A stretch of DNA of 64,000 nt from Prorocentrum cordatum (Eukaryota), in NCBI GenBank assembly GCA_963575745.1, contig CAUYUJ010000015.1, positions 310,001 through 374,000 of the forward strand, written 5' to 3'. This document shows, piece after piece, positions 9,077-61,000 of the stretch. Every line of letters begins with the position of its first letter. Position 1 is the stretch's first letter. Under the pieces are notes generated by a model, which saw only the letters and a list, made by a program, of their open reading frames with translations, had not been told where the DNA came from and made no database searches. Position numbers and translations under genes: made by a program.

Positions 9077-9176
9077 NNNNNNNNNNNNNNNNNNNNNNNN
9101 NNNNNNNNNNNNNNNNNNNNNNNNNNNNNNNNNNNNNNNNNNNNNNNNNNNNNNNNNNNNNNNNNNNNNNNNNNNN
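9077..9176. other. Scaffold gap (100 N), followed by (TGA)n
   Basis: Run of Ns. Confidence 1.
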
Positions 9177-9438: not shown

Positions 9439-13588
<4,150 letters not shown>

Positions 13589-14264
13589 TAAAGCCTCCCC
13601 CTCAGCAGCAGAGCGAGAGGGACCGCTCGGAGTTCTCCTGCGATGGCTGCCCCCGCCGCCCAGCGCGAGAGGTGATCAACATCCAGGGCGTGCGGTATTC
13701 CAAGAACAACAGGTGCGCCCCAGGGGGGATCGACATCGTCGTTCTCCTCCTCCTCCTCCTCCTCCTCCTCCTCCTCCTCCTCCTCCTCCTGCTCCTCCTC
13801 CTCCTCCTCCTCCTCCTCCTCCGCCTGGCGCCGGCGCTGCCGGCATGAGCGTTCGGATCCAGAGATGCCATCGCCCTCTCTCCCCAGGGGGCTTCGCCAC
13901 TGGGCGGGGGTGATCAAACTGGGCTCTCGTTATGCCTGCCAGCGGTGGAGGAGAGGCGAGGCGGTGGAGGGAAGCGAGAAGGGACCGCCCAGGCCCTGGA
14001 GGACCCCCAGAGCCCCCCGGACAGGAGACAGAGAGCTCTGGGGGGGGGACTTCCAGGCCACGGGCCTCGGTCCCTGATACATAGTTTTGGCAGAAGTCGG
14101 TCCCCTATCACCCTCCAGCCTCCTCCACATCCCCCCCCCCCAGCCCCCGTGCCACGGGGGTGGCTGTCCAGCGGGGCGCCAGGGTTCGGCGCTGCTGTGG
14201 CCGTGCCTTGGCGGCCACGGGGCCTGCTCTGCAGCGCAGGCCGCTCGGTGCTTTGGTGGACTTA

Positions 14265-17106: not shown

Positions 17107-19674
17107 CATGGTTTTGGTCCGAGGGTTTGGGTGCACCAGCTAGGCTGGCGCGAATTTCTCGCGCTGGGACTAGCGCAACGGTGAGCGAAACTGCCTGGCA
17201 CGCGCGCCGCGATCGCCAGCGGGCGCGGCTGCTGCTGGCGGCGTGGGCCGGCAAGGAGAGCGATCGGTTCCAGGCGTGGCTGGCGGCGGGCGCCGGCCTA
17301 TGGGACAGGCACCACGGTTCTTCAGCGGGCACGAGGATGGCAGCAGGCGGTGGCGACAGCAGGAGCAATGTCCAGTCAAGCGGGGGCAAAGCGCCCTAAT
17401 TAGACATGCTCGCGCGGGACAACGGTTATTCGGGCGTCGTGGGCAGCCTGCCGCGCGCGCGGGGCGGAGTGGCCGCCGCGGAGCGTGTGGCAGCGCCCCG
17501 CTTCCCGCAAGGCCCGCCGCAAGGTCAATTCCTCGGTGGCAGCGCTGAGGCGTGACTTGGGGGGGATCAAGAAGCAGAACCAACTGATACTGCAGCGGAC
17601 GGCATCCCGAAGCGCTGCAGGATCGAGCGGGTCGGGGGCCTAAGAGGCGGAGGAGGACGACTGACGGGGGCAATTGCGACCGCTCCTCTCGAAGGTGGGG
17701 CCCTCGGCAGCACGGGCGCGGCTATGCAGGGCCTCCTCGACATGCGCAAGCAGGAGGCCGCGGCCATCACCGAGGCCCGGCGCGCCGCCGAGCCGCCCGG
17801 CTAGCGGCCGCGCGCGATCGACGCCGAGATCGGCCAGGTCGACGGGCGCATGGCTCCCAAGCCGACAGCCGCTGAGGCGAGCGAGGCGGTGGCTGGCAGC
17901 ATCTACGAGGTCGCGGCCACCATGCAGATACTGCAGAGCCGGGGGCCAGACTTCGGCTGCACAGGCCGCTGCCAGCAGCCCCGCGGCGAAGGCGGCGGCG
18001 CCCGTTGCGCCCGAGGCCCGAGGCCGCCAGCGGCGGAGGCGCCCAGCAGCCCGCCGCGGCCGCCGGCCCCGCCCATCCCCAGCACAGCGAGCGGCCCACG
18101 GCGGCGGCGGAACCGCCGAACCGCCCGCCCAGGCCGCGACGGAGGGCATCGACGATCTAGAGGATGAGGAGATGGAGGCTGCGCTGGAGTAAGCCCTGGC
18201 TGGGGGTGCGGCTGATTGCGCCAGCGATGCTGAGGGCGCTACCCCGCGCCTCAACCGCGAGCAGCTCCGCGGCGTCATCGCCGCCGCCCGTGCATAGACA
18301 GGCGAGCGCCGCGGAGTCATCGTGGGGGGCCAGCGCTGTGGCGACGACGCGCGCCGCGGTGACGTTGCGCTTCGACGAGCTCGCGCCAGCCTGCGGCGCC
18401 GCGCCCGCGCGCGCGCGGCCCCGGGCACCCGCCGCCGCGGCCGCGGGCGCACAGCGGGCTACTTGGAGGCGGCGAACCCGCGCCGTGCAGCGCGAGACAT
18501 TCGAGATCATGGCGGTCGGCGGATCAGACTGGGGACCGCTCGCGCAGCTCTGGCAAGAGGGCGCGGTCGGCGCGGGCATCGCGGAGAGCAACCGCGCCGG
18601 CGCCTGGCCGACGCAGGAGACGCGCCTCCACTCGCGCGACATCGCCGCGCAGGAGGCCCAGCGCAGGCGCGTTCACATCAAGGCGGCCCTCGCGCCAGGC
18701 GCGGCTGGCAGCGGGGGCGCGGGCGGCGGGGGGGCGGGCGCGGCAAGCGTCGGGATCGCCGCGCCCAGAGAAGGGGGCCCGGCCAGCGCTTCCACCGACG
18801 GCGTCGCCCGCGTCGCGTGCAGCGACGGACGCAGGATGATCGCCGCGACCGACGGGGTCGCCACGGGCGGCGTCGACCTGGCCACCGACGCACTGGGGGG
18901 CGCATCGCAGCGCGCGCACGCAAAGATCGGAAACGAGCTGGTCGCGCAGGGGCGGCCGGGGGCAGTCGGAGGTAATTTCGGCGCGGCGCGCGAGGTCTTC
19001 CGCGAGAAGGCGGGCGGGCCGCTGCAAGCTGCGGGCGGCGCCGCCACGCCGTCGGCCGAGGGCGCCGCGCGCTTTCAGGCAGCTTCGCCCACCGACCCAG
19101 ATTTGTTCATCGCGCAGCGGAGCCCGCGGGGAGCTGCGGCGCGGCGGGGGCCGGGCCCCCCCCGCCCGCGCGGCGCCGTGAAGCCGGCGCTGAACGGGCG
19201 CGCGCTGCGCGAGCCGTCCAGGCGGACGGTCGCGCTTGCTCCCGCGACACCTCAAAGCGAAACTATCAACTTTTTCCGAGCGGTTCGCTTTCGATTTCGC
19301 TTTCTTAACTATTAACTTTTTCGGGGAAGCTTCGCTTTCGCTTTCGCTTTCCCAACAATTAACTATTATTTTCTGCGCTTCGCTTAGTCATTCCCGCCGT
19401 CGCCTGAACTTGTCCCTTGCGGCCGTGCCTTCACCGAATTATGAATCGCGCGCCCACTGGGATTCAATGGTTTCGGTACGGAAGGCACGTAGTATGCAAG
19501 ATGTGGCAACAGTCCAACCACATTCTCATGCTCCGTCAAATCCGTATTGCATTAGAATTTTTTTCTCCGAAGCATCTTTACCCAAACCATATGACATGAT
19601 GCTGGCTGCTGTTGCCCAGCGTGGGCCTTCAATAGTGGTTCTTTGGTTCCTAGCAATGCCCGTGGGGGAACCTA

Positions 19675-20002
19675 TGTCGTGCAATATATGAGATGCGAGC
19701 TACGTGGTGCAATCTATGTGGTGCCATCAAGGTTGTGCGACACATGTGGTGCGATGTATGTGGTTCAATATATGTAGCGCAACCTATGTGGTGCAAGATG
19801 CGTGGTGCGATGTATGCGCCCATATTGATGTGGCGCAACCTATGTGGTGTAAAGTTTGTGGTGGGAGCTGCGTGGTGCAAAACATGTGGTGCAATAGCTG
19901 CGATGCTGTCCATATGGTGCAATATATGTGGTGCAAGCTACGTAGTGCAATCTATGTGGTGTTATCTATGTGGTGCAATATATGTTGTGCAATCTACGCG
20001 GT
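19675..20002. repeat. Degenerate minisatellite, consensus ATGTGGTGCAATCT
   Basis: Many imperfect copies of (A)TGTGGTGC(AA). Confidence 0.85.
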
Positions 20003-22415
20003 ACATCTCGGGTGGCGAAGAGGCAGCGACGGGGCGGCGACGGCGCACCGCCAGACCAGCACCCACGCCCAAACGACAGGCGGCGACGAAGCGGCGACGG
20101 GGACAACAGAGCCGGTAGTTACGCTCCCAGGCCCACCCCCCTAGACCCTAGAAAACAAATAAGAAACCCTGGGTGCAAACATTGTTTGGGGAACCTTGGA
20201 TATACCGGCGTATCGCACGATTGAGATAGAATATTGGTACGTTCGCGAGCTCCAGGCTCAAGAGCTCGTCGCATCCCAGGTGGTGGACCTGCATTCCTTT
20301 TTGCAACGGCCCCAACAGACCGCCGACAGCATGTCGGCTTCCTCCTACGCTGTTCGTCGCAAGGCGCTCGCAGCCATGTTCGGGGAGCCCCCTGGCGCCA
20401 CCCCCGAGAAAAAACAGAAGGTGTTGAACTGTATCCCACTGACCCCTGAAGAGAAAAGAGCAAAGGATCTCGAGGAGGGCGGGGGACACGCAATACAATT
20501 TGTTGTTACATCCGACACTGCACGCGTGCAGCGCGCACTTTACCTAGGAAGGTGCACCCCTGCAAGAGGGGGGGCACACTAGGGAACATGAAAACGCAGC
20601 CCCCACCCCTGAGGATGTCGACGCTTTCAAGCGGCAGGCCGACGCGACAGCCGAGGCCCAGCGACAGCTCCCCGAGGAGTGGGGCCTCGAGTGGCCCAGG
20701 CCGCAGCCAACGGGGCCACCGCGCAAGGGGGGGCCGATCCCCAGAGCCCAAAAATGGCAGGATAGTCTTTACCAGTGGCACGCGGGAGTTGTGAAGGGCG
20801 AGCTCCCCAAGCCCTCGGCGCCCCCGCCGCTGCCGTTCCCCTCGGACTGGGACCATAAGAAGTGCCCAGCGTGGGCGTACCAGGCGAGGGCGACGACCCC
20901 CGACAAAGACCCACAGGCCACTCCGAAGGCGCAGAACGGGGAAATCCAAGTCGATCTGACGCCCGAGAAAGGCCCGCGGGGCACTCCGAAGGCGGAGGAC
21001 GGGGACACCCAGGGCGTGGTGAACGACGAGTGCGCGAAGCAGCCCGGGAAGAAGCGGAGTTATCATTTGTACCCGCCCGAGGTGGTTGATTTCTATTTCG
21101 GTTTCGAGAAGGACATGGGGGGGGCCCGCTCGAAAGTTGTCGACTGCGTCAAGAAACACTACCCCTCCCTGTTCCCGAAGACCTTCTGTGAGAGCCGAGT
21201 TCGCGCCTGGGAAAAGACGCGCCATCGTCCTGACAACGGGAGCGCTGCTGCTGGGCAGGGATGGCGTTTGGGCCAGACTGTCTTGCCAGTCGGCCATTTG
21301 GCATTCATCGGCTCCCTCATCGTATCGCAGTACAACGCCGGAATTCCCATGACCGCGCGGCTCCTCGTTCCCCTCGTGGCAGGGGCATTGGTGGCGAAGG
21401 GGCTCGGGGACAAGGTGGTCTCGAAGCAAATGCGGAGGGCACCCGCGCAATGCATCAGCAAAATCGCTTGGGCATGCAATGTAGAATTGTGGGCGCAGCA
21501 CGCGAGACCCGACATGTACGTATTATTTGCATGCATGTGGCCCGTTCGCTTGTATGTGTATGCGTGCCACCCCGCATGTACGCACTACTGCATGACAGAG
21601 CGCGTTCCGTGCTGTTTGTTGACGGAGAAGGAAGAAACGGACACCGAACGTGAACACCACGCACAAGTAGCAGGGTTGTCCTACGAACGTGGCCGAAATT
21701 CTGCGCACAGAGAGAAACGCGTCACCCTGGGCACTCGCAAAAACGACCCGGAAAAAACAAACATGTGCCGCCCTGGGCGTTTCCAAACAAATTCCGGTGG
21801 ACGTGGAGAGGAAGGAGGGGGACAAGGGGGAGGAGGAGGAGGAGGACAAGGAGGAGGAGGAGGAGGAGGAGGAACGGGAGGAAGTAGGAAAACAAATGGC
21901 GCATGATACGAAGTCGGCCTGATGAAACGTCTCCCGCCCGCGGCTGGATGGGAAGTTCCGCAGAAGGTGTTGGCGGACTGCCCAAACGGCCACAACGATG
22001 AATCCAACGCACTAGAGAGAAAAGAAGTGGGAGGGGAGGAGGAACAAAGGAGGGAAGAGAAGAGGGGGCAGGAGCAGACAGGCACGCACGAGTGAGACTG
22101 AACATGATAATCCTAATGTTGGCAGCATGAATAGGTGTAGCGTGTGTGTTCTGTGTCTAATGTTGTGCCTGTGCGCGTATCTGGATCTGTGCACTGATGT
22201 GTGTATGGTATGTCTACGTGTACGCAAATGCACCAGTGAGCTCTTTTCACTGCGCCCTGTCGCCAGGGCTATGCTTCGACGTAGGTCCGATACAAGATTC
22301 AAAACTCGTCTGAAAACGCATCGCACTAGTGCTCGCACAATGTTCGGTCCAGACTCTGACCCTAATTTGCCACTAAGCGCCACTCCGCTCAGGCTTGTCA
22401 TCAACCTTTCGGCTC

Positions 22416-24065
22416 TCAGATGCCGAACGCCTTCTCCAGAATGTGTTGAGTACTCTTGTCGAGACTACCCATGGCCGCCTGCGCATCTTCACCGCCCTCC
22501 ACTTCGTGGTCTGCCTCGCCTGCTGGCTCCATTTCCGCTGCCTCCTCGGCCTCCCACGCTGCGCCCAGTCCAAGTTCCTCGTCAGCTGCTTCCGCTGCGG
22601 CTTTCGCCTCAGCAGCTTTCCTTTCTTGGTAGCGCAATGTTTTGTAAGGGTTGCACACCAAGCACCCTCCTCCGGACCAGCGGCACCTGGGGCAACCGTA
22701 CAAGTAATTGCCACCTCCTTTGCAGCCGTCAGGCTGCAGCGCCTTGGATTTCGCCTTCTCCTTCGCTTTGTCCTTCCCCTTCGCCTTCTCCTCTTTGGCC
22801 TTCTGTTCCCCTTTCGCCATCCCCTCATCCTCTTCATCATCCTTCGCATTATCCTCCTTCGCCTTATCCTCTCCCTTCGCTTTGTCATCCCCTTTCGCCT
22901 TCCCTCCATCCTCCTCCATCGTCTCGTCAATTTGTTTCGCCTTCTCCACCTCCTTCTTCGCCGTCTGCTCCGCCTTCGCCTTCTCCTCCTCCTCCTCCTC
23001 CTTTGCGTTCTCCTCCTCGTTCGCGTTCGCCTTCGCTTTTTCCTCGATGTCCTTCTCCTCACCCTGCGCCTTTTCCTCGTCTGCCTGCGCATCGGGGGAC
23101 TTGCTGATCTTCGTCAGGGTTCCCCCGAATAGCTCCTTTTTGGCCTCCAGGGCTTCCGCCTCCTGGAAGAGCGCCCCCTGCTGCGGGCCCCAAGCCTGCG
23201 CCAAGCCTGACTCGGCCCATCCGCGGCACAGCTCCTGCCCAGAAGGACGACGAGGAAAACGAGGAGGACGACGAGGACAACGAGGGAGTGGGAGATGGAG
23301 GAGGGGGAGGAGGACAGCGAGGAAAACAGGGACGAGGGGCAGGCATACCCACTTTCGATCGATTGTTTTGTTGATGTGTGCGCGTTTCGTTTCGCTCGAG
23401 GGCCTGGCGGGTGAAGGGCCACGAACTCGCAGGGGGGGGCCGGGTGATTCGGGAAAGATGCGCTGCCTTGTCTTTCTTAGAGATCTGCTCGAAGGCAGTA
23501 GACAGAAAATGGCAGAAGGGAGTCTTCAAGGCAACGAGGTTCAGGTCGATCGTCACAGAGGTGCTCGGGACACTCTGGTCAGCAAGCTTCAAGGCAACTT
23601 GACCCGCGAACCACTCCGTGGCCGCAGTGCTGATGAGGTTCTTGAACTGGGCGTTAACGGCAACGTCCAGAGGCTGCAAGAAAGGGGTATAGTTTGCCGG
23701 AACGAACAGCAGGATGAGTTGCGGAAGCGTCTGCTTCACCCAATCCAGAAATCCAGCGTCACGGTGCGAAGAGTAGACGTCGAGGATGAGCACCATGCGT
23801 TGCCCAAGTGGCAAGCCGTTCTTCTCCACCATAGGCGTGTAGTATGTCTCCATGAGATGGGTGACGAATTCCTTCATGGTTTGCACTGTGCTCCAGTGGC
23901 TCTCAGAATGGGCGTGGAAGATATGTTTTTCGAACTGCTTCTGCGTCTGGGAGGTCGGCTCGCACTGCTTCGTTTTCCCTCCCCAGATCACTTGGCGCGG
24001 CCTGATGAGCTCGCCTGCGGCTGAAATCCGCCGACCCTGTCGGCGTGTGGAATGGGCTGTTCCGT

Positions 24066-24098
<33 letters not shown>

Positions 24099-27000
24099 CC
24101 AAGCGAGTGAGCCAAATCGAAATGCACCAACCCAGCCAAAGCGAAACGGAGCAACGTCCTCATCGTCGTCGTCGTAATCGTCGTCATTCAGGGTCGGCGG
24201 CGCTCGCCGTAAGGCCTTTCGAATCGTCGGTATGACCGTGTATTGCCGCTTGTCTCCAGCCCCGTGGAAGACCGTCTGCTGCCCCTTCCCGCTGGGTGCC
24301 CAACCCCGAGGCTTCAAAGGGAGTAAAAAGACACCTGTTTCGTCCATGTTCACCACAAGCTCTCGCGGGATGGAGTGGGAAACGATGATATAGACCAGAC
24401 GCAAGAGGAACAGATGAGCTGTAGCCTTCAGGTCCACCTCGTTCGGTTGATGCTTCTTGGTGCGAGTCGGCCGCTTGTAGGACATCTTCAGAACTACTTT
24501 GCAGAATCGCTGCACCCACCTGTCCGTGATGCTGACCTTCCCATCGTGGCCTTTCTTTTCGTTCCCTTTCGTTTCGGTCACCACCTGGGAGCGTATTTGC
24601 TGTGCGACCGCTCTGGGCGTCAGCGCCGGAGCGTGTTAATAAATCCTCTGCCCCTTTCGCCCGCGGAGCTCTTCCCACGCTTGAGAGCGCATGCTTTGAC
24701 ACATCCCCCTCCCCGCCTCCGGTACATCCTCCTCGTCCTCCTCCGCCGCGCGGTCGATCAGCAAATGCGCTCCCAGGTGGTGACCGAAACAAAAGGGAAC
24801 GAAAAGAAAGGCCACGATGGGAAGGTCAGCATCACGGACAGGTGGGTGCAGCGATTTTGCAAAGTAGTTCTGAAGATGTCTTACAAGCGGCCGACTCGCA
24901 CCAAGAAGCATCAACCGAACGAGCTGGACCTGAAGGCTACGGCTCATCTGTTCCTCTTGCGTCTGGTCTATATCGTCGTTTCCCACTCCATCCCACGAGA
25001 GCTTGTGGTGAACATGGACGAAACAGGTGTCTTTTAACTCCCTTTGAAGCCTCGGGGTTGGGCACCCAGCGGGAAGGGGCAGCAGACGGTCTTCCATGGG
25101 GCTGGTGACAAGCGGCAATACACGGTCATACCGACGATTCGAAAGGCCTTACGGCGAGCGCCGCCGACCCTGAACGACGACTACGACGACGACGATGACG
25201 ACGTTCCTCAATGTTGCTTTGGTTGGGTTAGGGCACGTCGATTTGGCTGGCTCGCTTGGCGGCGACGGCGACGACGACGAACGGAACAGCCCATTCCACA
25301 CGCCGACAGGGTCGGCGGATTTCAGCCGCAGGCGAGCTCATCAGGCCGTGCCAAGTGATCTGAGGAGGGAAAACGAAGCAGTGCGAGCCGACCTCCCAGA
25401 CGCAGAAGCAGTTCGAAAAAACATATCTTCCACGCCCATTCTGAGAGCCACTGGAGCACAGTGCAAACCATGAAGGAATTCGTCACCCATCTCATGGAGA
25501 CATACTACACGCCTATGGTGGAGAAGAACGGCTTGCCACTTGGGCAACGCATGGTGCTCATCCTCGACGTCTACTCTTCGCACCGTGACGCTGGATTTCT
25601 GGATTGGGTGAAGCAGACGCTTCCGCAACTCATCCTGCTGTTCGTTCCGGCAAATTACACCCCTTTCTTGCAACCTGTGGACGTTGCCGTCAACGCCCAG
25701 TTCAAGAACCTCATCAGCACTGCGGCCACGGAGTAGTTCGCGGGTCAAGTTGCCTTGAAGCTTGCTGACCAGAGTGTCCCGAGCACCTCTGTGACGATCG
25801 ACCTGAACCTCGTTGCCTTGAAGACTCCCTTCTGCCATTTTCTGTCTACTGCCTTCGAGCAGATCTTTAAGAAAGACAAGGCAGCGCATCTTTCCCGAAT
25901 CACCCGGCCCCCCTCTGCGAGTTCGTGGCCCTTCACCCGCCAGGCCCTCGAGCGAAACGAAACGCGCACACATCAACAAAACAATCGATCGAAAGTGGGT
26001 ATGCCTGCCCCTCGTCCCTGTTTTCCTCGCTGTCCTCCTCCCCCTCCTCCATCTCCCACTCCCTCGTTGTCCTCGTCGTCCTCCTCGTTTTCCTCGTCGT
26101 CCTTCTGGGCAGGAGCTGTGCCGCGGATGGGCCGAGTCAGGCTTGGCGCAGGCTTGGGGCCCGCAGCAGGGGGCGCTCTTCCAGGAGGCGGAAGCCCTGG
26201 AGGCCAAAAAGGAGCTATTCGGGGGGACCCTGACGAAGATCAGCAAGTCCCCCGATGCGCAGGCAGACGAGGAAAAGGCGCAGGGTGAGGAGAAGGACGT
26301 CGAGGAGGAAGCGAAGGCGAACGCGAACGAGGAGGAGAACGCAAAGGAGGAGGAGGAGGAGGAGAAGGCGAAGGAGGAGGAGGAGGAGGAGGAGGCGAAG
26401 GCGAAGGCGGAGGACAAGGCGAAGGAGGAGGAGGAGGAGGAGGAGAAGGCGAAGGAAGTGGACGGGGCGAAGGAGGAGGATGGAAGGAAGGCGAAAGGGG
26501 ATGAGAAAGCGAAGGGAGAGGATAAGGCGAAGGAGGAGGATAAGGCGAAGGATGATGAAGAGGATGAGGGGTTGACGAAAGGGGAACAGAAGGCCAAAGA
26601 GGAGGAGAAGGCGAAGGGGAAGGGCAAAGCGAAGGAGAAGGCGAAATCGAAGGCGCCGCAGCCTGACGGCTGCAAAGGAGGTGGCAATTACTTGTACGGT
26701 TGCCCCAAGTGCCGCTGGTCCGGAGGAGGGTGCTTGGTGTGCAACCCTTACAAAACATTGCGCTACCAAGAAAGGAAAGCTGCTGAGGCGAAAGCCGCAG
26801 CGGAAGCAGCTGACAAGGAGCTTGGATTGGGCGCAGCGTGGGAGGCCGAGGAGGCAGCGGAGATGGAGCCAGCAAGCGAGGCTGACCACGATGTGGAGGG
26901 CGGTGAAGATGCGCAGGCGGCCGTGGGTAGTCTCGACAAGAGTGCCCAAAACATCCTGGAGAAGGCGTTCGGCATCTGAGAGCCGAAGGGTGGATGATAA

Positions 27001-29057
27001 GACTGAGCGGAGTGGCGCTTAGAAGGGCGATTGGCTGGTTAGGGTAAGAGTCTGGAACGAACACTGTGCGAGCACTAGTGCGATGCGTTTCCAGACGAGT
27101 TTTGAATCTTGTATCGGACCTACGTCGAAGCATAGCCCTGACGACAGGGCGCAGTGAAAAGAGCTTACTGGTGCATTTTGCGCACACGTAGACACACCAT
27201 GCATCAGTGCACATATCCAGATACGCGCACATGCACGCCAGCAGACACAGAACACACACGCTACACATACTCATGCTTCCAACCTTAGGTTGATCATGTA
27301 CTGCCTCACTCTTGCGCGTCTGTCGGCTCCTCCCTCCTCTTCTCTTTCCGCTTCCTGTTCCTCCTCCCCCCTCTCGCTTTTCTCTTGCTATGTTGGATTT
27401 ATCGATGTGGCCGTTTGGGCACTCCGCCAGAACCTTCTGCGGAACTTCCCATCCAGCCGCGGTCCGGATACGTTTCAGGCCGAAGTCGTATCATACGCGA
27501 ATTGGCCTTCCTTCTTCCTCCCGTTCCTCCTCCTCCCCCTTCTCCTCCGCGGCCACGGGGACTTTTTGTAAACGCCTAGGTCGGTGCACATTTGTTTCTC
27601 CGGGTTGTTTTTGCGACTGCCCAGGGTGGCACTTTTCTCTCTATGCGCGCTCGCGCCAAGTTTCGGCCACGTTCGTAGGACAACCCTGCTACGTGTGCGC
27701 GTGTTGTTCACGTTCGGTGTCCGCTTCCTTCTTCCCCCTCAACGGAAACACAGAACGTGCACTGTCATGCAGCAGTGCGCACATGCCGGTGGGCAAGCAT
27801 ACACATACAAGCGAACGGGCCACATGCATGCAAGTAAGTGCGTACATGTAGGATCTCGCGTGCTGTGCAGACATTTATACACGCATGCGTTCACACATGC
27901 ATGCCCAAACGAGCTTGCTGATACATTGTGCGGGTGCCCGCCGCATTTGCTTCGAGACCACCTTGTCACCGAGCCCCTTCGCCACCAATGCCCCTGCCAC
28001 GAGGGGAGCGAGGAGCCGCGCGGTCATGGGAATTCCGGCGTTGTACTGCGATACGATGAGGGAGCCGATAAATGCCAAATGGCCGACTGGCAAGACAGTC
28101 TGGCCCAAACGCCATCCCCGCCCAGCAGCAGCGCTCCCGTTGTCAGGACTACGGCGCGTCTTTTCCCAGGCGCGAACTCGGCTTTCACAGAAGGTCTTCG
28201 GGAACAGGGAGGGGTAGTGACTCTTGGCGAAGTCGACAACTTTCGAGCGGGCCCCCCCTATGTCCTTTTCGAAACCGAAATAGAAATCAACCACCTCGGG
28301 CGGGTACAAATGATAACTCCGCTTCTTCTCGGGCTGCTTCGCGCACTCGTCGTTCACCACGCCCTGGGTGCCCCCGCCCTCCGCCTTCGGAGTGCCCTGC
28401 GGGCCGTTCTCGGGCGTTAGATCGTTTTGGGTTTCCCCGTTCTGCGCTTTCGGAGTGGCCCGTGGGTCTCTGTCGGGGGTCGTCGCCCTCGCCTGGCACG
28501 CCCACGCGGGGCATTTCTTATGGCCCCAGCCCGACGGGAACAGCAGCGGCGGGGGCGCCGAGGGCTTGGGGAGCTCGCCCTTCACAACTCCCGCGTGCCA
28601 CTGGTAAAAACTATCCTGCCATTTTTGGGCTCTGGGGATCGGCCCCCCCTTGCGCGGTGGCCCCGTCGGCTGCGGCCTGGGCCACTCGAGGCCCCACTCC
28701 TCGGCGAGCTGTCGCTGGGCCTCGGCTGTCGCGTCGGCCTGCCGCTTGAAAACGTCGACGCCCTTGGGGGGCGGGGGCGGGCGGGCTTCGTTTTGATGTT
28801 CCCAACTGTGTCCCTTTTATAAGGATGCGCCGCCCCATGTAAAACAAATGCTGCGCACGTACATGTTCGCATGGTAAACATTAAAAAATCCGAATGCGTC
28901 CCCTGCCCTCATTGATATATTTGATCCTTTTTTGCTCAGGGGCCAGCGAGACAACGTCCAACACCTTTTGCTTCTTCTCGGGGGTGGCGCCAGGAGGTTC
29001 CCCGAACGTGGCTGCAATCGCCCTGCGGCGAGCAGCGCCCGAGGAAGAGGCCGACAT
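22416..29057 (-). CDS. Spliced pogo-type (HTH + CENP-B-like HTH + DDE_1) transposase, ~900 aa; predicted exons 29057-~28908, 28762-27962, 24584-23467 (interrupted by the 197-bp insertion at 24027-24223), 23234-22416
   Basis: Catalytic motifs NMDETG, LILDVYSSH and LQPLDV. The HTH is split as ...NAGIPMTARLL...GLGDK|VVTET...SITDRWVQRFCK..LKMSYKRPT. GT-AG intron 27961-24585 and GC-AG intron 23466-23235 both preserve frame. No stops apart from the insertion. The first-exon boundary is uncertain. Confidence 0.8.
24027..24223 (+). mobile_element. 197-bp mini-element inserted in the transposase
   Basis: A|TCCGCCGACCCTGTCGGCG...(GTC)n...CAGGGTCGGCGG..GCCGTAAGGCCTTTCGAA|T. Removing it restores ...YTVIPTI-SAAGELI... 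with no TSD. Confidence 0.9.
25138..25319 (-). mobile_element. 182-bp mini-element at the equivalent site in the mirror copy
   Basis: Same termini and insertion point as 24027-24223; differs mainly in GAC-repeat length. Confidence 0.9.
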
Positions 29058-30719
29058 GCTTCCAAAGGTACGTCGGAACCGTGGCAAGGAAAAATCAGGG
29101 TCACCAGCTGGAATGCGACGCTTCCTCGGGCCTGAGGGCGAGAATGAGCACGAGCCCAAGCATTTGCATTGATAGCGGTAGCAACGCGACCGATTACATT
29201 ACGAAACGAACAATAAGGACAACCAGACATCAACCCAACTCACGGTATACATGATGCTGTTATTACGTTTCATTCATGTTTAAACAAAAACATCATAATA
29301 TTCCAATATGGTGTCATACCCGCATCCAGTATTACTATTAAATGGACTCTGCGTTATGACGGTAACGTGCCGTACGCAACGATGCCCGTATTCATGCGAA
29401 TATGCGCAACGTCGTGAACATTCGTGCAATAAACAAACTGCGGTGAAAAAGAAACACTAGTACTGGTTTTCATCAGACAATACACGTAGCGGGGAATACG
29501 ACCACGATTATCAACGCAAAATATTTAGACAAAAATCACAAAATAGCTGCGCGAATATGACAACATCTGTGTTGGCTCACAGGATTCGCACAAAAACGAA
29601 ATCATATGGGCAATGCCAATTCCAGTATCTCAGGTTGGCCTTTGGCCATATAACTTGGCATGTCGCGTCCGTTTTCGGAATTGCAGTCTGGATCGCATTC
29701 GCAATTGAATCGCGCGCTCATCATGGTGATCATGCGCATGTGATCCCGCTTTGTGGCAGCACTCCCTGGTGTTTTTTTGGTGCGCGTGACATCGCGCTGC
29801 TCTGCCAACGCGATAGATCAGGACGTGGAACGCACGAACGGACCATGCTGCTACCACGCGGAGATCCTAACTTCAGCCTTGCGTCCTCTCGGCGCTTTCG
29901 CTTTCTCGCTAACTAACTTCGCCCGGTGCGGCCTCGTCGTCTTTCGTAACTAACTTGTCGGGCCCGAAGCTCGCCGTCTTCTGAGTTTCGCTTTGACGTG
30001 TCGCGAAATGGTGAAATAATTTCAATTGGCGAAATAGGCATTATTCAAACACACAACGCAAATGCACGATTCATATACACTACGTATGTACACTACGTAA
30101 ATACACCGCGTAGATTGCAATTCACCCGCAGAAACAGCTCAAACGAGAGCGAACATACACTATGAAGATTATGTTGCGACATGCACTACGCAATTAATAT
30201 GCGCGCGATCTGCGACGCGAAAGACGCCGCGCGAAATGCACTGCGCTATTAAACTGCGCGAGCATTCCGCGCAAGCACTGCGCGCCCAGCGGCGACGCCA
30301 ATACTGCGCGCGAAAACGTTCTGCGCGAATGCACCGCGGAAGCGCCGCGCCAGCGCCCGTCGCCAACGCGCTGCGACGACGCGCTGCGCAAACGCGCTGC
30401 GTAGAAGTCACTGCGCGAAATATACCATGCAAGTGCGCTACGCGAGTGCAGTCCGCAAATACATTGCGCAAATCCACTGCGTGAATGCACCCTGCCGCCG
30501 CGTAACCACACGACGCAAATAAAGCGCGCGGCGCGCTCCTCGCCGCGCCCGAGCGCGGCGCGGCGCGGCGCGGCGGGGCGAGGCGCAGCCCCCGGCGCAG
30601 TAGCGCCGCCGCGGACATCTCCAGCGCTGCCGCGGCCCATCGCCCGATCGCGGCGGCGGCGCCCCCGGGCCCCGCCGTTCTGAATCCCCGCCCGAGTTCG
30701 CGGGTCGACCGCGGAAACG

Positions 30720-58058: not shown

Positions 58059-61000
58059 TCAGGCCTCGCGGATGAACTCGCTGAAGCCGAGCTCCCTGGC
58101 GAGGGCCGTCGCCTCCCTCCTGCACCGCTTCGTGCGCGCAGCAAACTGCTCCAGCTGCTTCCGCAAGCCCGCCGGCGGCCCTGCCAGGAAGAACTCGATG
58201 AGCGGCGCCCGCATGAGCAGGAGATCCTCGTGGCGCGTGGCGCGCGAGAGCAGCGCGTAGAGCTCCAGCCACCAGTCGTCGTCCTCCTTCTTGCCGTTCC
58301 CGACCTCGTGGCGGCCGCAGTCCAGGATCACGCCTGGGCGGCGTCGGCCGGGGGAGCAGTGCGCCAGACAGCCGACGGCCCAGGGCGAGAGTCCACGGGA
58401 CCGAGAGAAGGTCCGGCTGCGGACCGCTCGCGTCTGAAGGGTTCGGCCGTAGACTGCCCGGTGGCGCCGTTCCCCCGCCCCGTCGCCTTCCCGCATAGTG
58501 CGCCCCTGGCACGCCACCGTGGTGATGACCCTGCCGTGTGAAAACGGGAAGCCCGTCCGGGTGACCTTGGAGGTGCGGAAGGTGAACGGCTCCGACGTAC
58601 GGGGCTCGATGAACACCAGCGGGCCCGTGAGGTCCCCCGCGAGGCTGTCGTCGTGGCGCTTCAGGTCGCCCACGAAGGGCGCGCCCGCGTATTTCTCCAT
58701 GCGCACCCAGAACCCCTGGGGCAAGCGCTTCAGATATATCCTCTTCTCTCCGTCCCTCTCGGCCCTCTCGACGTCGTCCCGATCCCGAGGGTTCACGACG
58801 ATGTGCACGATCTGCCCCTCGGCGTCCTTGACGAGGCCGTTCTTGAGATCGAGCGCCTCCAGGAGCCGGATCCGCATGCCCACGTGCACCGGGAGCAGTC
58901 CGTGCATGCCACCGGTGTTCTTCGGGTTGGCACAGTTCATCATCTTGGCGGCGTCCTTCTTGCTCATCGTCGGGGCAGACCTGTCGGCGGCCTGCACGAG
59001 GAAGAGGGGCTTCTTCAGGACGTCCGCGTCCCGCTGGGCACGCATGTTCATCCATCGCGCCACGGTGTCCCAATACGACCCAATCATGTGGCCGTTCTGG
59101 AACCTTTCCTCCCGGAGCCAGCGGTCATCGGGTTGCAGCTGCATGGCGTTCCACGTGGCCCGGATGGCCGGAGGGACCTGCTTCCCCGGTTTGCGCAAGA
59201 ACGCCATGAGATCCCTGAGCTTCGCGTCTTTGAAGCGGTTGGACGCCTGGGGCTCGAAGCACAGCGGTGTGTTGCAGAAGAGTTTCATCACGGCCTGGTA
59301 CTCTGGAGCGAGGTTGATGCCCGCCGCCGCGAGTTCCTCGAAGCTGGAGATGAGCGACACCTTGCCTCCCGTCGGCTTCAGCTGCAAGAAGTCTCCCAGG
59401 TGGATCACGATAGGCATCCGGCCGAAGGCTCCGCCGACCTGGTCGCACTCCCGCTCCTCCGCGCCCCACTCGGCCTTGCGCCCGAGGTAGGACCGGAAGG
59501 CCAGCATGTTGTACAAGTTAAGCGAGATCATGCTCACCTCCTCCAGGATCAAGCACTTGACCGCCTCCCACGTGTCCTGTAGCGCTTTCAGCTTGCCCCC
59601 CGCGGGTATGTCCTTGTTCCTGAAGGACTGCACTCCTATGACACCCGCCCAGTGGCAACTGACGGCCTTGTGAGCGTCCGTGGAGATGTTCGCGGCCTGG
59701 GACCACTTCGCGCAGACTATCTGCGTGGCCTTCGCCTTGCCCGGCTCCACAGGGAACAGTGCGTCCATGGCCGGCAGCACGATCTCCTGCACCATGGCGG
59801 TCTTCCCGCTGCCGCCCTGGCCGAGGAGCAGGAACTGGAACGGCTTCCGCTTCGCGTGCTTGGCCATGCTGCCGACGTTGATCTTCTGCTCCTCGCCCCA
59901 CACCACGTTGCAGGCGTTCGCGAAGGCCGTGGCGAGCAGGGCCTGGTCGGGCTTCAGAGGGCGGGGCTCCTGCCGCCCCGTTCTCGGGTCGACCACGCCG
60001 TCCTCGAACTTTTTGACGAGGCGCATGACGAAGTCGCTGGGCCGCTGCATCTCCTCCGAACGCTCCCACCGCGCCTGCGCCGCCTCAACCAGCATCGCGC
60101 CAGCGCCCGCTGCCTGGAGGTCGTCTGGCGCGGGGGCGTCGTCCACGGGCGCGTCCGCATCCTTCGTGCCTCCCCTGGCGAACCTTTTCCGTTGGGTTTC
60201 TACCAAGTCCTTCAGCTCGTCCGCGTCGAGATCGCGCAGGGCCCTGAAAAGGGCAAGGACGTCGTCCTTCAGAGCGCGGGCAGCGCGACGCGACGCGTCG
60301 GCGTCATTCGGACCCGGCAGCGCGCCGTTCTCCATCATCGTGGCGGCCTTTTTGAGATCCTTGACGAAGGCCTGCGTGCGCTCGGCGGTGTCGAAGCGCA
60401 AGATCTGCCCGAGCGTCTCGGGGTCGAAGTGATGCTCCAGGACCGCGTTGGCGCCCAGCTTCGCGAAGCCTTCTTGTGCGCGGATGCTCTGGGCCTCCAC
60501 CTGCGCGGCGCCCGCCCCCGAGTCCTCGGCGCCCTCGCGAAACACGGGGGCCTCGGGGACGTGCACGTCGTCCTTCTGCGGCCTCTTCGGCTTCGAGGCC
60601 TTCGCCTTGGAGATGCCGTCGAAGTTGGCCGCGGTCTTCGTGGTCTCCAGGGCCAGGTACTCCTGCACTGTCAGCATGCTGTGCAGCCAATTGCCCCACT
60701 CCGTGCACTGGGCGCACTGGCACGGAGGCTGCACGTCCTCCCCGCGGTCGCTGCGCTTCTCGCGCAGCGCGGACTCGACCTCCCCCGTGTTCCAGATGCT
60801 GGGAGTCGCCCAGGACCCGACGTCATTCCTGAGGCACTTCGCCCTGGCCGTCTTCGCCAGTTGCTCCTGGGCGATGGCGAACGACTCCCAGCCGCGCTGG
60901 AACGGGCCCGGGACGCCCTCCCCCGCCGGCTGCGCCGGCCACTCCGGCTCGCCCTTTGGCGCCGCGCACAGGTGCTCGTACGCGCGGAGGTAGCGCAGCT

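Follow-up and report, generated by a model that had tools for sequence, protein, structure and literature searches.

A palindromic locus of Prorocentrum cordatum in which the reading frame of a putative DDE_1 transposase is complete only across the two arms

Organization of the locus

The window, which is the whole 64-kb stretch of DNA that was analysed, holds a palindrome of about 9 kb (Table 1). Through blastn within the window, the arms 20267-24611 and 29120-24750 were found to pair at 88.65% over 4450 columns, with 321 mismatches and 33 gap openings, and the ungapped blocks within them are 95-98% complementary in a repeat search. Each arm carries a 5' gene half, A (exons 1-2), and an opposed 3' half, B (exons 3-5). 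The order A(+) B(-) spacer B(+) A(-), as given in the original prediction, is borne out when the collinear relative P0001 is mapped onto both arms by tblastn. Its residues 7-122 are placed at 21070-21417(+) and 28306-27959(-), and residues 134-546 at 24551-22620(-) and 24813-26775(+).

The palindromic layout is not a chance feature. It is also not a typical artefact, because the divergence between the arms ranges from 0.4 to 32% by part. Short-read contigs of run X1, 97-98% similar to the window, span the centre (24515-24784) and the passage from A into the sequence that follows it (21194-21698). The centre-spanning contig comprises 97 nt of the left arm, the entire spacer and 35 nt of the right arm; with 6 differences in 270 nt from the window, it is not the same sequence. 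Another X1 contig, with a difference at 22393 (66 letters from the nearer end), crosses the boundary of block X and exon 5, and one at 27111-27378 is specific to the right arm. The same continuation from A through element 'a' into X is also present in P0017, from a labelled data set. With the centre covered by a contig of a separate run, the palindrome is unlikely to have arisen in the assembly.

No further copy of the palindrome was found in the 64-kb window by blastn, and the depth at the locus in X1 is single-copy-like. The suggestion that the whole palindrome is a mobile unit gains no support from these results, and neither terminal repeats of the usual type nor a target duplication were found at the palindrome.

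Table 1. Features of the palindromic locus (window positions)
Feature	Position	Strand	Remarks
Left arm	20241-24611		Secure pairing from 20267; weak similarity out to about 20241
Spacer, non-palindromic, 138 nt	24612-24749		Pyrimidine-rich on the + strand directly upstream of B(+)
Right arm	24750-29146		Secure pairing up to 29120; weak similarity fades near 29146
Copy of B-acceptor motif, CCCAGGTGGTGGAC	20275-20288	+	Near the arm's outer end, 43 nt before ATG; mirror 29112-29099 (-)
Plus exons 1-2	20331-21414	+	In the model used, 20331-20465 and 20548-21414; reading frame open; last letters GACAAG (21414)
Plus exons 3-5	24777-26979	+	24777-25145, 25310-25880, 26113-26979; broken
Plus gene long GT..AG interval, 3362 nt	21415-24776	+	Holds antisense left-arm B copy and spacer
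Minus exon 1	28927-29057	-	ATG at 29057; 3' limit uncertain, 28927 (GA..AG intron) or 28965 (GT..AG)
Minus exon 2	27962-28805	-	N-terminal region, first HTH and two helices of the second; ends GACAAG at 27962
Minus gene long GT..AG interval, 3377 nt	24585-27961	-	Holds antisense right-arm B copy and spacer
Minus exon 3	24216-24584	-	Last HTH helix and first catalytic Asp (NMDETG); intact
Minus exon 4	23467-24036	-	DDE_1 core, LDVYSSHRD and QPLDV; intact
Minus exon 5	22416-23234	-	Acidic low-complexity stretch, Cys motif YGCPRCRWSGGGCLVC, stop TGA 22416-22418
Element 'a', outer copy, left arm	21415-21434	+	First 20 nt after A exon; mirror 27961-27942 (-)
Inner 'a' plus 7 nt	24750-24776	+	15/20 matches to outer copy; ends CAG, abuts B(+); mirror 24611-24585 (-)
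Block X, 981 nt	21435-22415		From 'a' to the stop codon of B(-)

Two halves of one transposase

Judging from their sequences, A and B are the two halves of one transposase of the Tc1/mariner type with a DDE_1 domain. The DDE_1 matches score 32.3 and 31.8 bits against a curated cut-off of 22, and the acidic residues in NMDETG, LDVYSSHRD and QPLDV stand in columns with little or no variation among the relatives. That the halves belong to one protein, as had been proposed, is supported by P0001, P0011, P0015, P0024 and P0033, which are collinear over the joint; three distant metagenome loci are collinear from A to B as well. The model of P0001 matches the structures of the Mos1, Sleeping Beauty and SETMAR transposases (17 chains with E <= 0.001, best 5.8e-7). 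In the same model, the A|B site cuts the N-terminal helical unit between helices 102-121 and 143-153, in keeping with the original claim of a divided DNA-binding region. HTH_Tnp_Tc5 was not detected in the window's pieces or in close relatives; it was met only below threshold in P0007 and P0005, the match in the distant relative P0007 lying on this same stretch.

The joint and the cross-arm reading frames

Direct reading of the letters confirms that A ends GACAAG|GTGGT at 21414 (+) and 27962 (-), and that B starts CCCAG|GTGGT with its first exon base at 24777 (+) and 24584 (-). The join is in frame (phase 0) and gives GLGDK+VVTETK, the counterpart of which in P0015 is GLGDKITLEPK. The expected intron of about 3.4 kb, with the partner's B exons antisense within it, was found as a GT..AG interval on each strand, and it is only through one of these intervals, across both arms, that a complete ORF exists. 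The flanks of the long interval (AAG|G, CAG|G) resemble those of the smaller introns of the same gene, and all four intervals have an AAG|G donor and an AG|G acceptor. The ORFs of P0008, P0009, P0010, P0018, P0019 and P0020 (11 fetched) stop right after the GDK codon, and likewise that of P0017, a match to the A end of the window itself. Such breaks in the relatives are as would be expected of an old intron at the A|B site.

On the minus strand, the cross-arm ORF has 910 codons (a model of 2733 nt) and 0 internal stops. Residues 211-682 align with residues 7-471 of P0001 in a single alignment through the joint, at 52% identity (E 2.4e-170), and exon 1 has the motif FGEPPGATPEKKQK in common with P0009. 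The 5' limit of exon 2 depends on the model (28805, 28813 or 28762), and two other GT..AG first introns leave the gene open, with 883 or 900 aa. It counts against the cross-arm reading that a GA donor is required for the first intron in the model retaining the family-conserved residues.

Of the two interleaved antiparallel genes that had been proposed, the layout stands, but not the notion of two working genes, as the plus gene is broken four times in the assembly. The lesions lie in B: TAA at 25035-25037, TGA at 25361-25363, an extra nucleotide at 25416 that shifts the frame, and TAG at 25734-25736. Contigs of X1 and X3 that otherwise match the right arm have TTA, not TAA, at 25035-25037, and the sole X1 contig over the exon-4 stretch is without a stop or frameshift. 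The damage to the plus gene appears to be recent, with at least the first stop being strain-specific.

A few observations count against splicing across the arms. The region upstream of the minus-strand acceptor is purine-rich, owing to the many pyrimidines that the spacer has on the + strand. The near-identical labelled peptides P0017 and P0032 are read-through, unspliced ORFs. Further, any transcript over the centre is predicted to fold into a long duplex, as was foreseen. In a test fold of 561 nt, a hairpin of -473.6 kcal/mol was obtained with the acceptor and exon 3 fully buried, and such burial should hinder splicing.

Divergence between the arms

The two copies of B exons 3 and 4 differ by 11 synonymous and 5 missense changes (binomial p = 1.4e-4, or 1.2e-3 with the three stops). 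The copies of exon 1 are separated by 9 synonymous and 8 non-synonymous changes (dS 0.47, dN 0.11; p = 0.013). There is no indel between the arms in exon 2 (from 20626) or exon 3, and those in exon 5 are all in-frame. Since exon 1 and B exons 3-4 differ mostly at synonymous sites, coding use probably persisted in the cross-arm layout.

Exon 2, in the A half, has diverged almost neutrally (dN/dS 0.77; 10 synonymous and 25 non-synonymous changes, p = 0.31). When the 23 amino-acid differences of the A half were polarised with 13 relatives, the derived state fell to the right arm in 11 cases and to the left in 5, and 7 were ambiguous. One of the changes derived on the right replaces V by A where 10 relatives have V. 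The A half of the intact minus gene would thus seem, if anything, the worse preserved, with an asymmetry that is not significant (p = 0.105). Among the B differences, stops are over-represented (3 of 19 against 3.8% expected, p = 0.033), an excess that would fit decay. Intron 4 differs by merely 0.4% between the arms, and the outer parts by 19-32%. As intron 4 is 99.6% identical, recent arm-to-arm conversion, rather than selection, probably shapes a part of the similarity pattern.

A possible origin of the layout

A point that is new relative to the original prediction is the recurrence of element 'a'. Its outer copies are identical in both arms, and the inner one begins exactly at the arm start. 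The pattern GGTC-N4-AGCAAATGCG, with at most one mismatch, occurs four times in the window against 0.05 expected: each A exon is directly followed by a copy, and each arm has one exactly at its inner end. The recurring element may be read as the scar of a rearrangement. Block X, with 13.4% substitutions and 16 gap openings relative to its counterpart in the right arm, is probably the former 3' flank of B.

The 20 nt duplicated where the block begins and ends suggest that the layout arose by ordinary rearrangement in two steps, an inversion and then an inverted duplication, an origin that was not considered earlier. The last 27 nt of an intron, exons 3-5 and about 1 kb of the 3' flank would have been inverted relative to exons 1-2, and the break would have duplicated the 20 nt of 'a', which would since have flanked the block on either side as inverted copies. 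This unit would next have been duplicated in inverted orientation about the 138-nt centre. As a by-product, each 5' half and the 3' half in the opposite arm would have become collinear on one strand.

Cross-arm splicing and its rivals

The palindrome is real, and is regarded as an old inverted duplication of a low-copy transposase gene of the Tc1/mariner type (Pfam DDE_1, pogo-like) that had probably been rearranged beforehand. Cis-splicing across the arms is taken as the leading reading, at a strength a little short of an even call. A transcript would start from one outer end and run through the centre, and the ordinary spliceosome would join AAG|GT to CAG|G over about 3.4 kb, so as to yield a full transposase mRNA. 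The minus-strand gene would still be capable of producing a protein of 910 aa; the plus-strand gene would have been capable until recently and would now be a pseudogene in this strain. In the precursor, the intron and the exons of the same molecule would pair along more than 2 kb, and therefore a low output may be expected in vivo, with dsRNA as a side product.

The main rival, possible but rather doubtful in our view, holds that the rearrangement split the gene for good and that no full-length protein has been made since. The minus ORF would then be open by luck, helped by arm-to-arm conversion resetting the copies, and the only output would be a hairpin RNA made by read-through from a neighbouring promoter, as in Mu killer but without a known target. 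Much of the above speaks for it: the four lesions of the plus gene, the near-neutral exon 2 with more derived changes in the right-arm A copy, and the missing second copy, terminal repeats and target duplication. Conversion is evident from intron 4, at 0.4% divergence where X and the outer 360 nt have 13-32%, the shared sequence upstream of the ATG is only about 90 nt long, and the acceptor is predicted to be buried in a giant hairpin. Inverted duplications of a transposase gene that act only through hairpin RNA are also known, as far as the account of Mu killer goes (PMC3440606). However, the synonymous excess in exon 1 and in B exons 3-4 needs selection at the protein level once the arms had started to diverge, and such a bias cannot arise from arm-to-arm conversion. 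It is also unlikely that an ORF of 910 codons, in five exons and two arms, would stay without a frameshift under free decay at the rate of X (13% substitution and 16 gap openings per kb), and the 20 nt on the donor side are identical between the arms.

A single arm as the functional unit is improbable. The inverted 'a' copies (21415-21434 and 24611-24592) that flank a block of 3.2 kb would let this block flip, putting B 27 nt behind A, in frame and with no stop; alternatively, the A and B transcripts of one arm would be joined in trans, the right arm being a decaying duplicate. The 'a' copies are real by their count, the 27 nt ('a' plus 7 nt before B) are open in frame in both arms, and the better-kept halves are both on the left (an intact B, and 5 derived changes in A against 11). 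Against this, a repeat of 20 nt at 75% identity offers very little length for homologous inversion, no gene for a recombinase was seen adjacent to 'a', and no flipped junction occurs among the matches listed from four runs, which is a weak argument. Further, the relatives have 19-20 residues from GD to (I/F)SxRW, as compared with 19 in the spliced join and 28 if the 27 nt are retained, and the left/right asymmetry in A is not significant. We know of no joining of separately transcribed nuclear exons in green algae.

Some library types are known to yield palindromes artefactually. The window itself is a scaffold that includes an N gap (9077-9176), and the three stops and the 1-nt insertion of the right arm could be consensus errors. 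Nevertheless, it is very improbable that a chimeric fold-back read or a mis-join produced the palindrome, since fold-back artefacts give identical arms and not patterned substitutions and indels, the X1 contigs are independent and either bridge the centre or are arm- or junction-specific, and the A-'a'-X continuation is repeated in P0017.

Comparison with known systems

With the pogo/Tigger-like (DDE_1) members of the Tc1/mariner transposases, the gene shares the DDE_1 match, the conserved acidic residues, the mariner-type structure matches (seen with a relative's model) and an N-terminal helical region of DNA-binding type ahead of the catalytic core. It differs from them in its low copy number, in that neither the usual terminal inverted repeats nor a TA duplication was found at this locus, and in that HTH_Tnp_Tc5 goes undetected in the window's pieces. 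Further differences are the long acidic tail, which bears a Cys motif, and the division of the gene into two opposed halves.

Mu killer of maize is a partial inverted duplication of a transposase gene, the read-through transcript of which is proposed to form a hairpin of about 4 kb that feeds siRNA production (PMC3440606). As described there, it consists of nothing but 5' mudrA sequence in a head-to-head arrangement and encodes no complete protein, and it silences active MuDR copies elsewhere (PMC3440606). Similarly, any transcript through the centre of the present palindrome is predicted to form a kb-scale hairpin. Unlike Mu killer in that description, the present locus has both halves, which together give a full ORF across the arms, and no further copy that might serve as a target was found.

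The rDNA palindrome of Tetrahymena is a large palindrome of the fold-back type. Large palindromes have been attributed to a fold-back at a break adjoining short inverted repeats (PMC6103520, PMC3834830). As in those accounts, long inverted arms are found here about a short non-palindromic centre of 138 nt, with a short repeat, the inner 'a', directly at their inner ends. The known cases, in contrast, duplicate whole genes or chromosome ends. To our knowledge, no fold-back palindrome contains a gene that becomes complete solely by crossing the centre.

The palindromes of sex chromosomes undergo arm-to-arm gene conversion and have complete genes in each arm. The present arms are likewise very similar in patches, irrespective of coding, as intron 4 and the outer parts illustrate; unlike in the sex-chromosome palindromes, each arm here consists of two opposed half genes.

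Two opposed halves of one transposase

The window is eukaryote-like in sequence, with a GC content of about 53-72% in 2-kb steps, and holds a palindrome from about 20.25 to 29.15 kb. By blastn, its two arms are 88.65% identical over 4450 columns, with 321 mismatches and 33 gap openings. The ungapped arm blocks found by a repeat search are 95-98% complementary, and weak similarity extends outward to about 20241 and 29146. Within each arm, the N-terminal exons (A, exons 1 and 2) and the catalytic and C-terminal exons (B, exons 3-5) converge, as A(+)/B(-) in the left arm and B(+)/A(-) in the right.

A protein search with the catalytic part as query returned seven relatives, the best of them being P0001 (629 aa), a collinear protein. 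Since P0001 matches the outer and then the inner ORFs in order, with residues 7-122 and 134-546, respectively (see the table), A and B are, by homology, two halves of one transposase. The joint between them had been predicted from the sequence, and direct reading of both strands found its letters, coordinates and frame to be exact. A ends with GACAAG at 21414(+) and 27962(-), followed by GTGGT, while CCCAG precedes the first exon base of B at 24777(+) and 24584(-). The joint is in phase 0 and reads GLGDK-VVTETK here versus GLGDK-ITLEPK in P0015; the GD-to-ITDRW spacing is 19 residues after joining, against 19-20 in four relatives.

The end of A, searched against the whole library, gave 24 relatives, of which 11 were examined. 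In six of these (P0008, P0009, P0010, P0018, P0019 and P0020), the ORF ends a few residues past G-D-K and the similarity is then lost, as it also is in P0017, which matches the window's own A end. Such a loss is as expected if an old intron lies at that point. The similarity of P0014 ends earlier. Relatives collinear from A to B include P0011, P0015, P0024, P0001 and P0033. The metagenome relatives amount to three distant loci on contigs too short to reveal a palindrome, and each is collinear over the joint in a single match at 28-29% identity to P0001. Among labelled proteins, P0032 (97% identity to exon 3 of the left arm) and P0017 (90% to the end of A) come closest, both under the EukProt label of a Pyramimonas sp. 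data set. Going by that label, the source of the window would probably be a prasinophyte green alga or a near relative of one. Both peptides continue into intron sequence and provide no evidence for splicing.

The catalytic domain and three acidic motifs place the gene, on sequence grounds, with the pogo-like (DDE_1) transposases of the Tc1/mariner superfamily. Both B copies match DDE_1. The Asp of NMDETG in the left-arm copy corresponds to D203 of P0001, in a column nearly invariant among the relatives; the Asp residues in LDVYSSH and QPLDV, namely D83 and D121 of exon 4 in the same copy, are invariant in 6/6 sequences. These acidic residues are presumably the catalytic triad, an assignment taken from the DDE_1 family. 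An RNase-H-like transposase fold is predicted by the model of the relative P0001 (mean pLDDT 63.9; 80-96 in the catalytic core, over residues 170-460), which Foldseek matches to Mos1 (4u7b_A, E 5.8e-7), Sleeping Beauty and SETMAR, with 17 chains at E <= 0.001. The family profile, searched against the sequences of solved structures, gave one chance-level match. No Rfam family was found in the window. A C-terminal Cys motif, YGC(P/S)(R/K)CR(W/Y)S.GGC..CN, is common to both arms and P0001; it is without a Pfam match and lies in a low-confidence part of the P0001 model.

It had also been proposed that the helix-turn-helix (HTH) is cut between A and B. Homology bears this out: in the P0001 model, helices lie at residues 80-95, 102-121 and 143-153 (pLDDT ~54-76), and the joint, at the end of 102-121, would fall between the second and third helix of that unit. 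It also maps inside a stretch of the distant relative P0007 (residues 185-255) that resembles HTH_Tnp_Tc5. The family match itself is only sub-threshold, with 16.7 bits versus 22.2 in P0007 and an E of 0.11 in P0005; the outer (A) ORFs gave no Pfam family, and P0001, P0009, P0011 and P0033 no HTH_Tnp_Tc5.

Gene models across the centre

A of one arm and B of the other, joined across the centre, make up a minus gene and a plus gene. Four intervals were placed in them with P0001 as the guide, all with donor AAG|G and acceptor AG|G. The long interval reads GACAAG|GTGGTC ... CTCCCAG|GTGGTG in both genes, and introns 3 and 4 read AAG|GC ... CAG|G. With its GT..AG borders, a context like that of the gene's other introns and a preserved frame, the long interval is consistent with a spliceosomal intron.

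Features of the palindrome and its surroundings, with arm-to-arm substitutions (exon coordinates are those of the minus gene, P0001-guided)
Feature	Coordinates	Strand	Borders or size	Substitutions	Remarks
Left arm	20267-24611
Right arm	29120-24750
Spacer	24612-24749		138 nt
Outer 'a' copies	21415-21434; mirror 27961-27942		20 nt		after each A exon
Inner 'a' copies	24750-24769; mirror 24611-24592
Block X	21435-22415		981 nt	13.4%	16 gap openings
5' region				30.2%
Exon 1	29057-28927	-		19.3%
First interval (intron 1)			GA..AG; 82 nt plus, 121 nt minus	31.6%	uncertain; GT..AG alternatives exist
Exon 2	28805-27962	-
Exon 2, first 78 nt				24%
Exon 2, rest				4.4%	no indels
Long interval			GT..AG; 3362 nt plus, 3377 nt minus		crosses centre
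Exon 3	24584-24216	-		2.7%
Third interval (intron 3)			GC..AG; 164 and 179 nt	8.5%
Exon 4	24036-23467	-		1.6%
Fourth interval (intron 4)			GC..AG; 232 and 232 nt	0.4%
Exon 5	23234-22416	-		4.5%	indels all in-frame
Outer ORFs	21070-21417; 28306-27959	+; -			P0001 residues 7-122
Inner ORFs	24551-22620; 24813-26775	-; +			P0001 residues 134-546
DDE_1 match (Pfam)	23059-24159	-			32.3 bits, E 9.2e-8, cut-off 22
DDE_1 match (Pfam)	25359-25736	+			31.8 bits, E 1.3e-7, cut-off 22
Cys motif	22620-22700; 26695-26775	-; +
Stop-free frames antisense to B exons	22708-24024; 25341-26687	+; -	438; 448 codons
Acceptor-like near-copy	20275-20288; 29112-29099	+; -			CCCAG|GTGGTG.ACC, 43 nt before ATG
AATAAA	24639-24644	+			in spacer, just upstream of B(+)
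Tandem array	19646-20033		~27 copies of 14-nt unit		~200 nt left of palindrome
Helitron_like_N ORF (Pfam)	61757-63715	-	653 aa		E 6.1e-8, 33.5 bits, cut-off 28.9
Adjoining ORF	58062-61961	-	1300 aa		no Pfam match
Low-complexity repeat	~9600-13600		several kb		beside the N run
N run	9077-9176				the only one in the window

The original prediction of two interleaved cross-arm genes stands for one of them. The minus gene is 2733 nt long and encodes 910 aa with 0 internal stops; its residues 211-682 match residues 7-471 of P0001 in one stretch (52% identity, E 2.4e-170), and it also stays open with two canonical alternatives for the first intron (883 or 900 aa). The plus gene, in contrast, is broken in its B part by three stops and one frameshift: TAA at 25035-25037 in place of the left-arm TTA, TGA at 25361-25363 and TAG at 25734-25736 each in place of a left-arm TGG, and an extra base at 25416. 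The anatomy is confirmed and odd, and one partner gene is already dead. Reassignment of the plus-strand stops was ruled out, as all three stop codons occur among these replacements and TGA is also the terminal codon of either copy.

A stand-alone B gene was ruled out too: the right arm has an ATG at 24765, 12 nt ahead of its acceptor, but the left arm reads ATA there. As B is without a shared start codon and without most of the DNA-binding region, it had to join an A if it was selected as coding; the partner would be the A of the other arm, the sole one upstream on the same strand. The simplest route is ordinary cis-splicing over ~3.4 kb across the centre, between sites resembling the others of this gene, which we consider plausible, if tentatively so.

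The stop-free frames antisense to the B exons are probably a by-product of GC-rich, GAG-rich coding sequence. The acceptor-like motif, at up to two mismatches, has 4 matches versus 0.53 expected. AGGTGGT occurs 10 times in the window, against 5.05 expected, and 8/10 are inside the palindrome (20278-28296), all on the transposase sense strand. A dinoflagellate reading, with a spliced-leader relic at the outer end and GA/GC donors, was dropped on pattern counts and on the green-algal label of the nearest proteins; the leader-like pattern gave 3 matches with 3 mismatches versus 1.66 expected and 0 at the palindrome boundary.

Selection and decay

The divergence between the arms is very uneven along the palindrome. 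The near-identity of intron 4 shows what is evidently recent arm-to-arm conversion, and arm identity alone is therefore of little weight. A synonymous bias, on the other hand, points to protein-level selection, since arm-to-arm conversion cannot create it. In exon 3, the arms differ by 7 synonymous changes, 2 missense and 1 stop; in exon 4, by 4 synonymous, 3 missense, 2 stops and 1 frameshift. Pooled, 11/16 differences are synonymous (p = 1.4e-4), or 11/19 with the stops (p = 1.2e-3). Exon 1 (34 codons) gives a dS of 0.47 and a dN of 0.11 (p = 0.013). The coding sequence thus appears to have been under protein-level selection after the arms began diverging, i.e., in the palindromic layout. 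An alternative for the synonymous excess is that the arms come from two separately selected copies. Exon 2, with a dN/dS of 0.77 (p = 0.31), speaks against a simple selection story, and that the cross-arm gene is a relic, never used, is possible though doubtful.

The amino-acid differences in A, polarised with 13 relatives, are derived on the right in 11/23 cases, on the left in 5/23 and ambiguous in 7/23 (p = 0.105), and the A half of the intact minus gene does not appear to be the better-kept one. For exon 4, with X1 as the outgroup (X1-X4 being independent runs whose contigs were aligned to the window), the right arm has accumulated 1 synonymous and 2 missense changes, 2 stops and 1 frameshift, and the left arm 3 synonymous changes and 1 missense. 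The right B copy would thus now be in free decay, whereas its left counterpart still seems to be under constraint.

The run contigs also help to date the damage to the plus gene. Eight sites tell the arms apart within 24874-25174. An X1 contig over this stretch (record 7) has 5 differences from the right arm of the window, 4 of them listed. As 25036 is the sole arm-discriminating site among the listed differences, the contig agrees with the right arm at a minimum of 6 of these 8 sites, but it carries TTA and not TAA. A contig of X3 (record 21, 24918-25142), which spans 6/8 sites and has 9 other differing letters, also has TTA and may belong to either arm. A single X1 contig lies on 23434-24052, with no stop and no gap; at a depth of 16.1 versus 7.5-10.2 in its neighbours, about twofold, it may represent both arms.

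The 'a' repeats and the origin of the layout

The inner copies of 'a', the element that follows each A exon, match the outer ones at 15/20 positions, end 7 nt before B and start within 0-2 nt of the start of arm pairing. Its core, GGTC-N4-AGCAAATGCG, is found with at most one mismatch at exactly these four places, versus 0.05 expected. Within one arm, the two copies form inverted repeats flanking a 3.2-kb block of X and B. In a collinear ancestor of the order A-a-7nt-B-flank, a staggered break at 'a' could have let the B block be religated in reverse, and the product, A-a-(flank', B', 7nt')-a', would then have given rise to an inverted second copy, with the adjoining 138 nt as the centre. The geometry of 'a', as read from the sequence, is that expected from a staggered break, inversion and inverted duplication. 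The 'a' copies are 25% diverged, versus 19-32% in the outermost parts of the arms, which is consistent with an old event.

Together, 'a' and the 7 nt make a segment of 27 nt, in frame and stop-free, that would add 9 residues more than the relatives have; it is too short for an ordinary intron. A route by inversion within each arm, between its 'a' copies, or by trans-splicing, is very unlikely.

Assembly support and mobility

Among the four runs, 0/4 are on record as RNA, and 41% of the sampled words occur in X1. The X1 contigs are ~1-3% different from the window, and X1 is therefore taken, on sequence, to be a related strain and not the same sequence. One of its contigs (24515-24784) bridges the centre, with the full spacer between 97 nt of left arm and 35 nt of right arm; another (21194-21698) runs from the A exon into the downstream sequence; a third (27111-27378) is right-arm-specific, where the arms are only ~82-89% alike; and the boundary of X and exon 5 is crossed by a contig that departs from the window at 22393, 66 letters inside the nearer contig end. 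Because such contigs bridge the centre and the block boundaries, and because arm divergence is patterned, an assembly artefact is scarcely credible. The X1 contigs leave 25359-25685 and 27975-28628 uncovered.

The suggestion that the whole palindrome may be a mobile unit found no support: blastn found no further copy in the 64-kb window, and no dispersed copy was found there or, at 90% likeness, in the X1-X4 contigs. Over A, X and exon 5, X1 reaches a depth of 5-13, comparable to the 9-10 of the flanks. Compared for terminal inverted repeats, the outer end and the start of X are no more alike than shuffled controls (score 14, null mean 15.5), a result compatible with a decayed element. No TA target-site duplication was found at the palindrome ends; the outer boundary is fuzzy, and an apparent GCGAG repeat sits inside the arm homology.

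Other repeats lie nearby. The tandem array (ATGTGGTGCAA-type) is very deep in X1-X3 and is therefore a dispersed satellite. At the right end of the window, there is probably a Helitron-type element. The low-complexity repeat has long ORFs on both strands, with PASQ and GWLA repeats and Asp runs.

Expression, hairpin potential and meaning

A 561-nt sample around the centre is predicted to fold as a single hairpin (-473.6 kcal/mol, z -35.7), in which the acceptor and exon 3 are paired throughout. The exons differ between the arms by 0.4-4.5%, save exon 1 and the first 78 nt of exon 2 (19-24%). As judged by predicted folding, this is an inverted duplication of a transposase able to form a long RNA duplex. 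The precursor would pair its intron with its own exons, and this predicted pairing leads one to expect a low yield and double-stranded RNA.

It may be asked whether selection has long maintained the interlocked layout as a mode of expression for a transposase-derived gene, self-limiting, kept up by conversion and tolerant of the loss of one partner; this is unlikely. On such a reading, each mRNA would arise only through splicing across the centre, over an intron holding the partner's exons antisense. The donor-side 'a', which recurs 7 nt before the acceptor, would pair co-transcriptionally with the inverted intron copy, bringing donor and acceptor within ~170 nt. RNA interference would be fed by the intron-exon duplex, which is unavoidable, and expression would thus be self-limiting. 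Conversion between the arms would maintain the likeness of the copies, and a strain that has lost one partner, like this one, would still have the other to rely on.

If the cross-arm gene is used, it would be a natural case of an inverted duplication repairing a gene split by inversion, with a precursor RNA that is its own antisense by construction. It would also be a simple system for studying splicing versus double-stranded RNA formation and the birth of hairpin-RNA loci from transposons. If it is only a relic, the locus is a clean, datable case, in an alga, of inversion with breakpoint duplication, leading to a palindrome and then to patchy arm conversion. Gene callers, whether ORF-based or, for the most part, intron-aware, would split A and B into opposite-strand fragments with no apparent relation, a pitfall illustrated by the labelled peptides P0017 and P0032 from a related data set.

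Tc1/mariner-type transposases, inverted duplications, conversion between arms and the potential to form a hairpin are each familiar. What appears new is their combination, with two opposed halves in each arm, an ORF that is complete and intact only when read across the centre, and signs that this arrangement was under selection. The literature searched on interleaved opposite-strand genes with introns held nothing on palindromes, and that searched for a gene completed only across palindrome arms gave no description, the nearest case being Mu killer. This maize locus is a partial inverted duplication of mudrA, for which a ~4-kb hairpin RNA and siRNAs are proposed (PMC3440606). The locus described here resembles it in being an inverted transposase duplication with hairpin potential, predicted in the present case from sequence.
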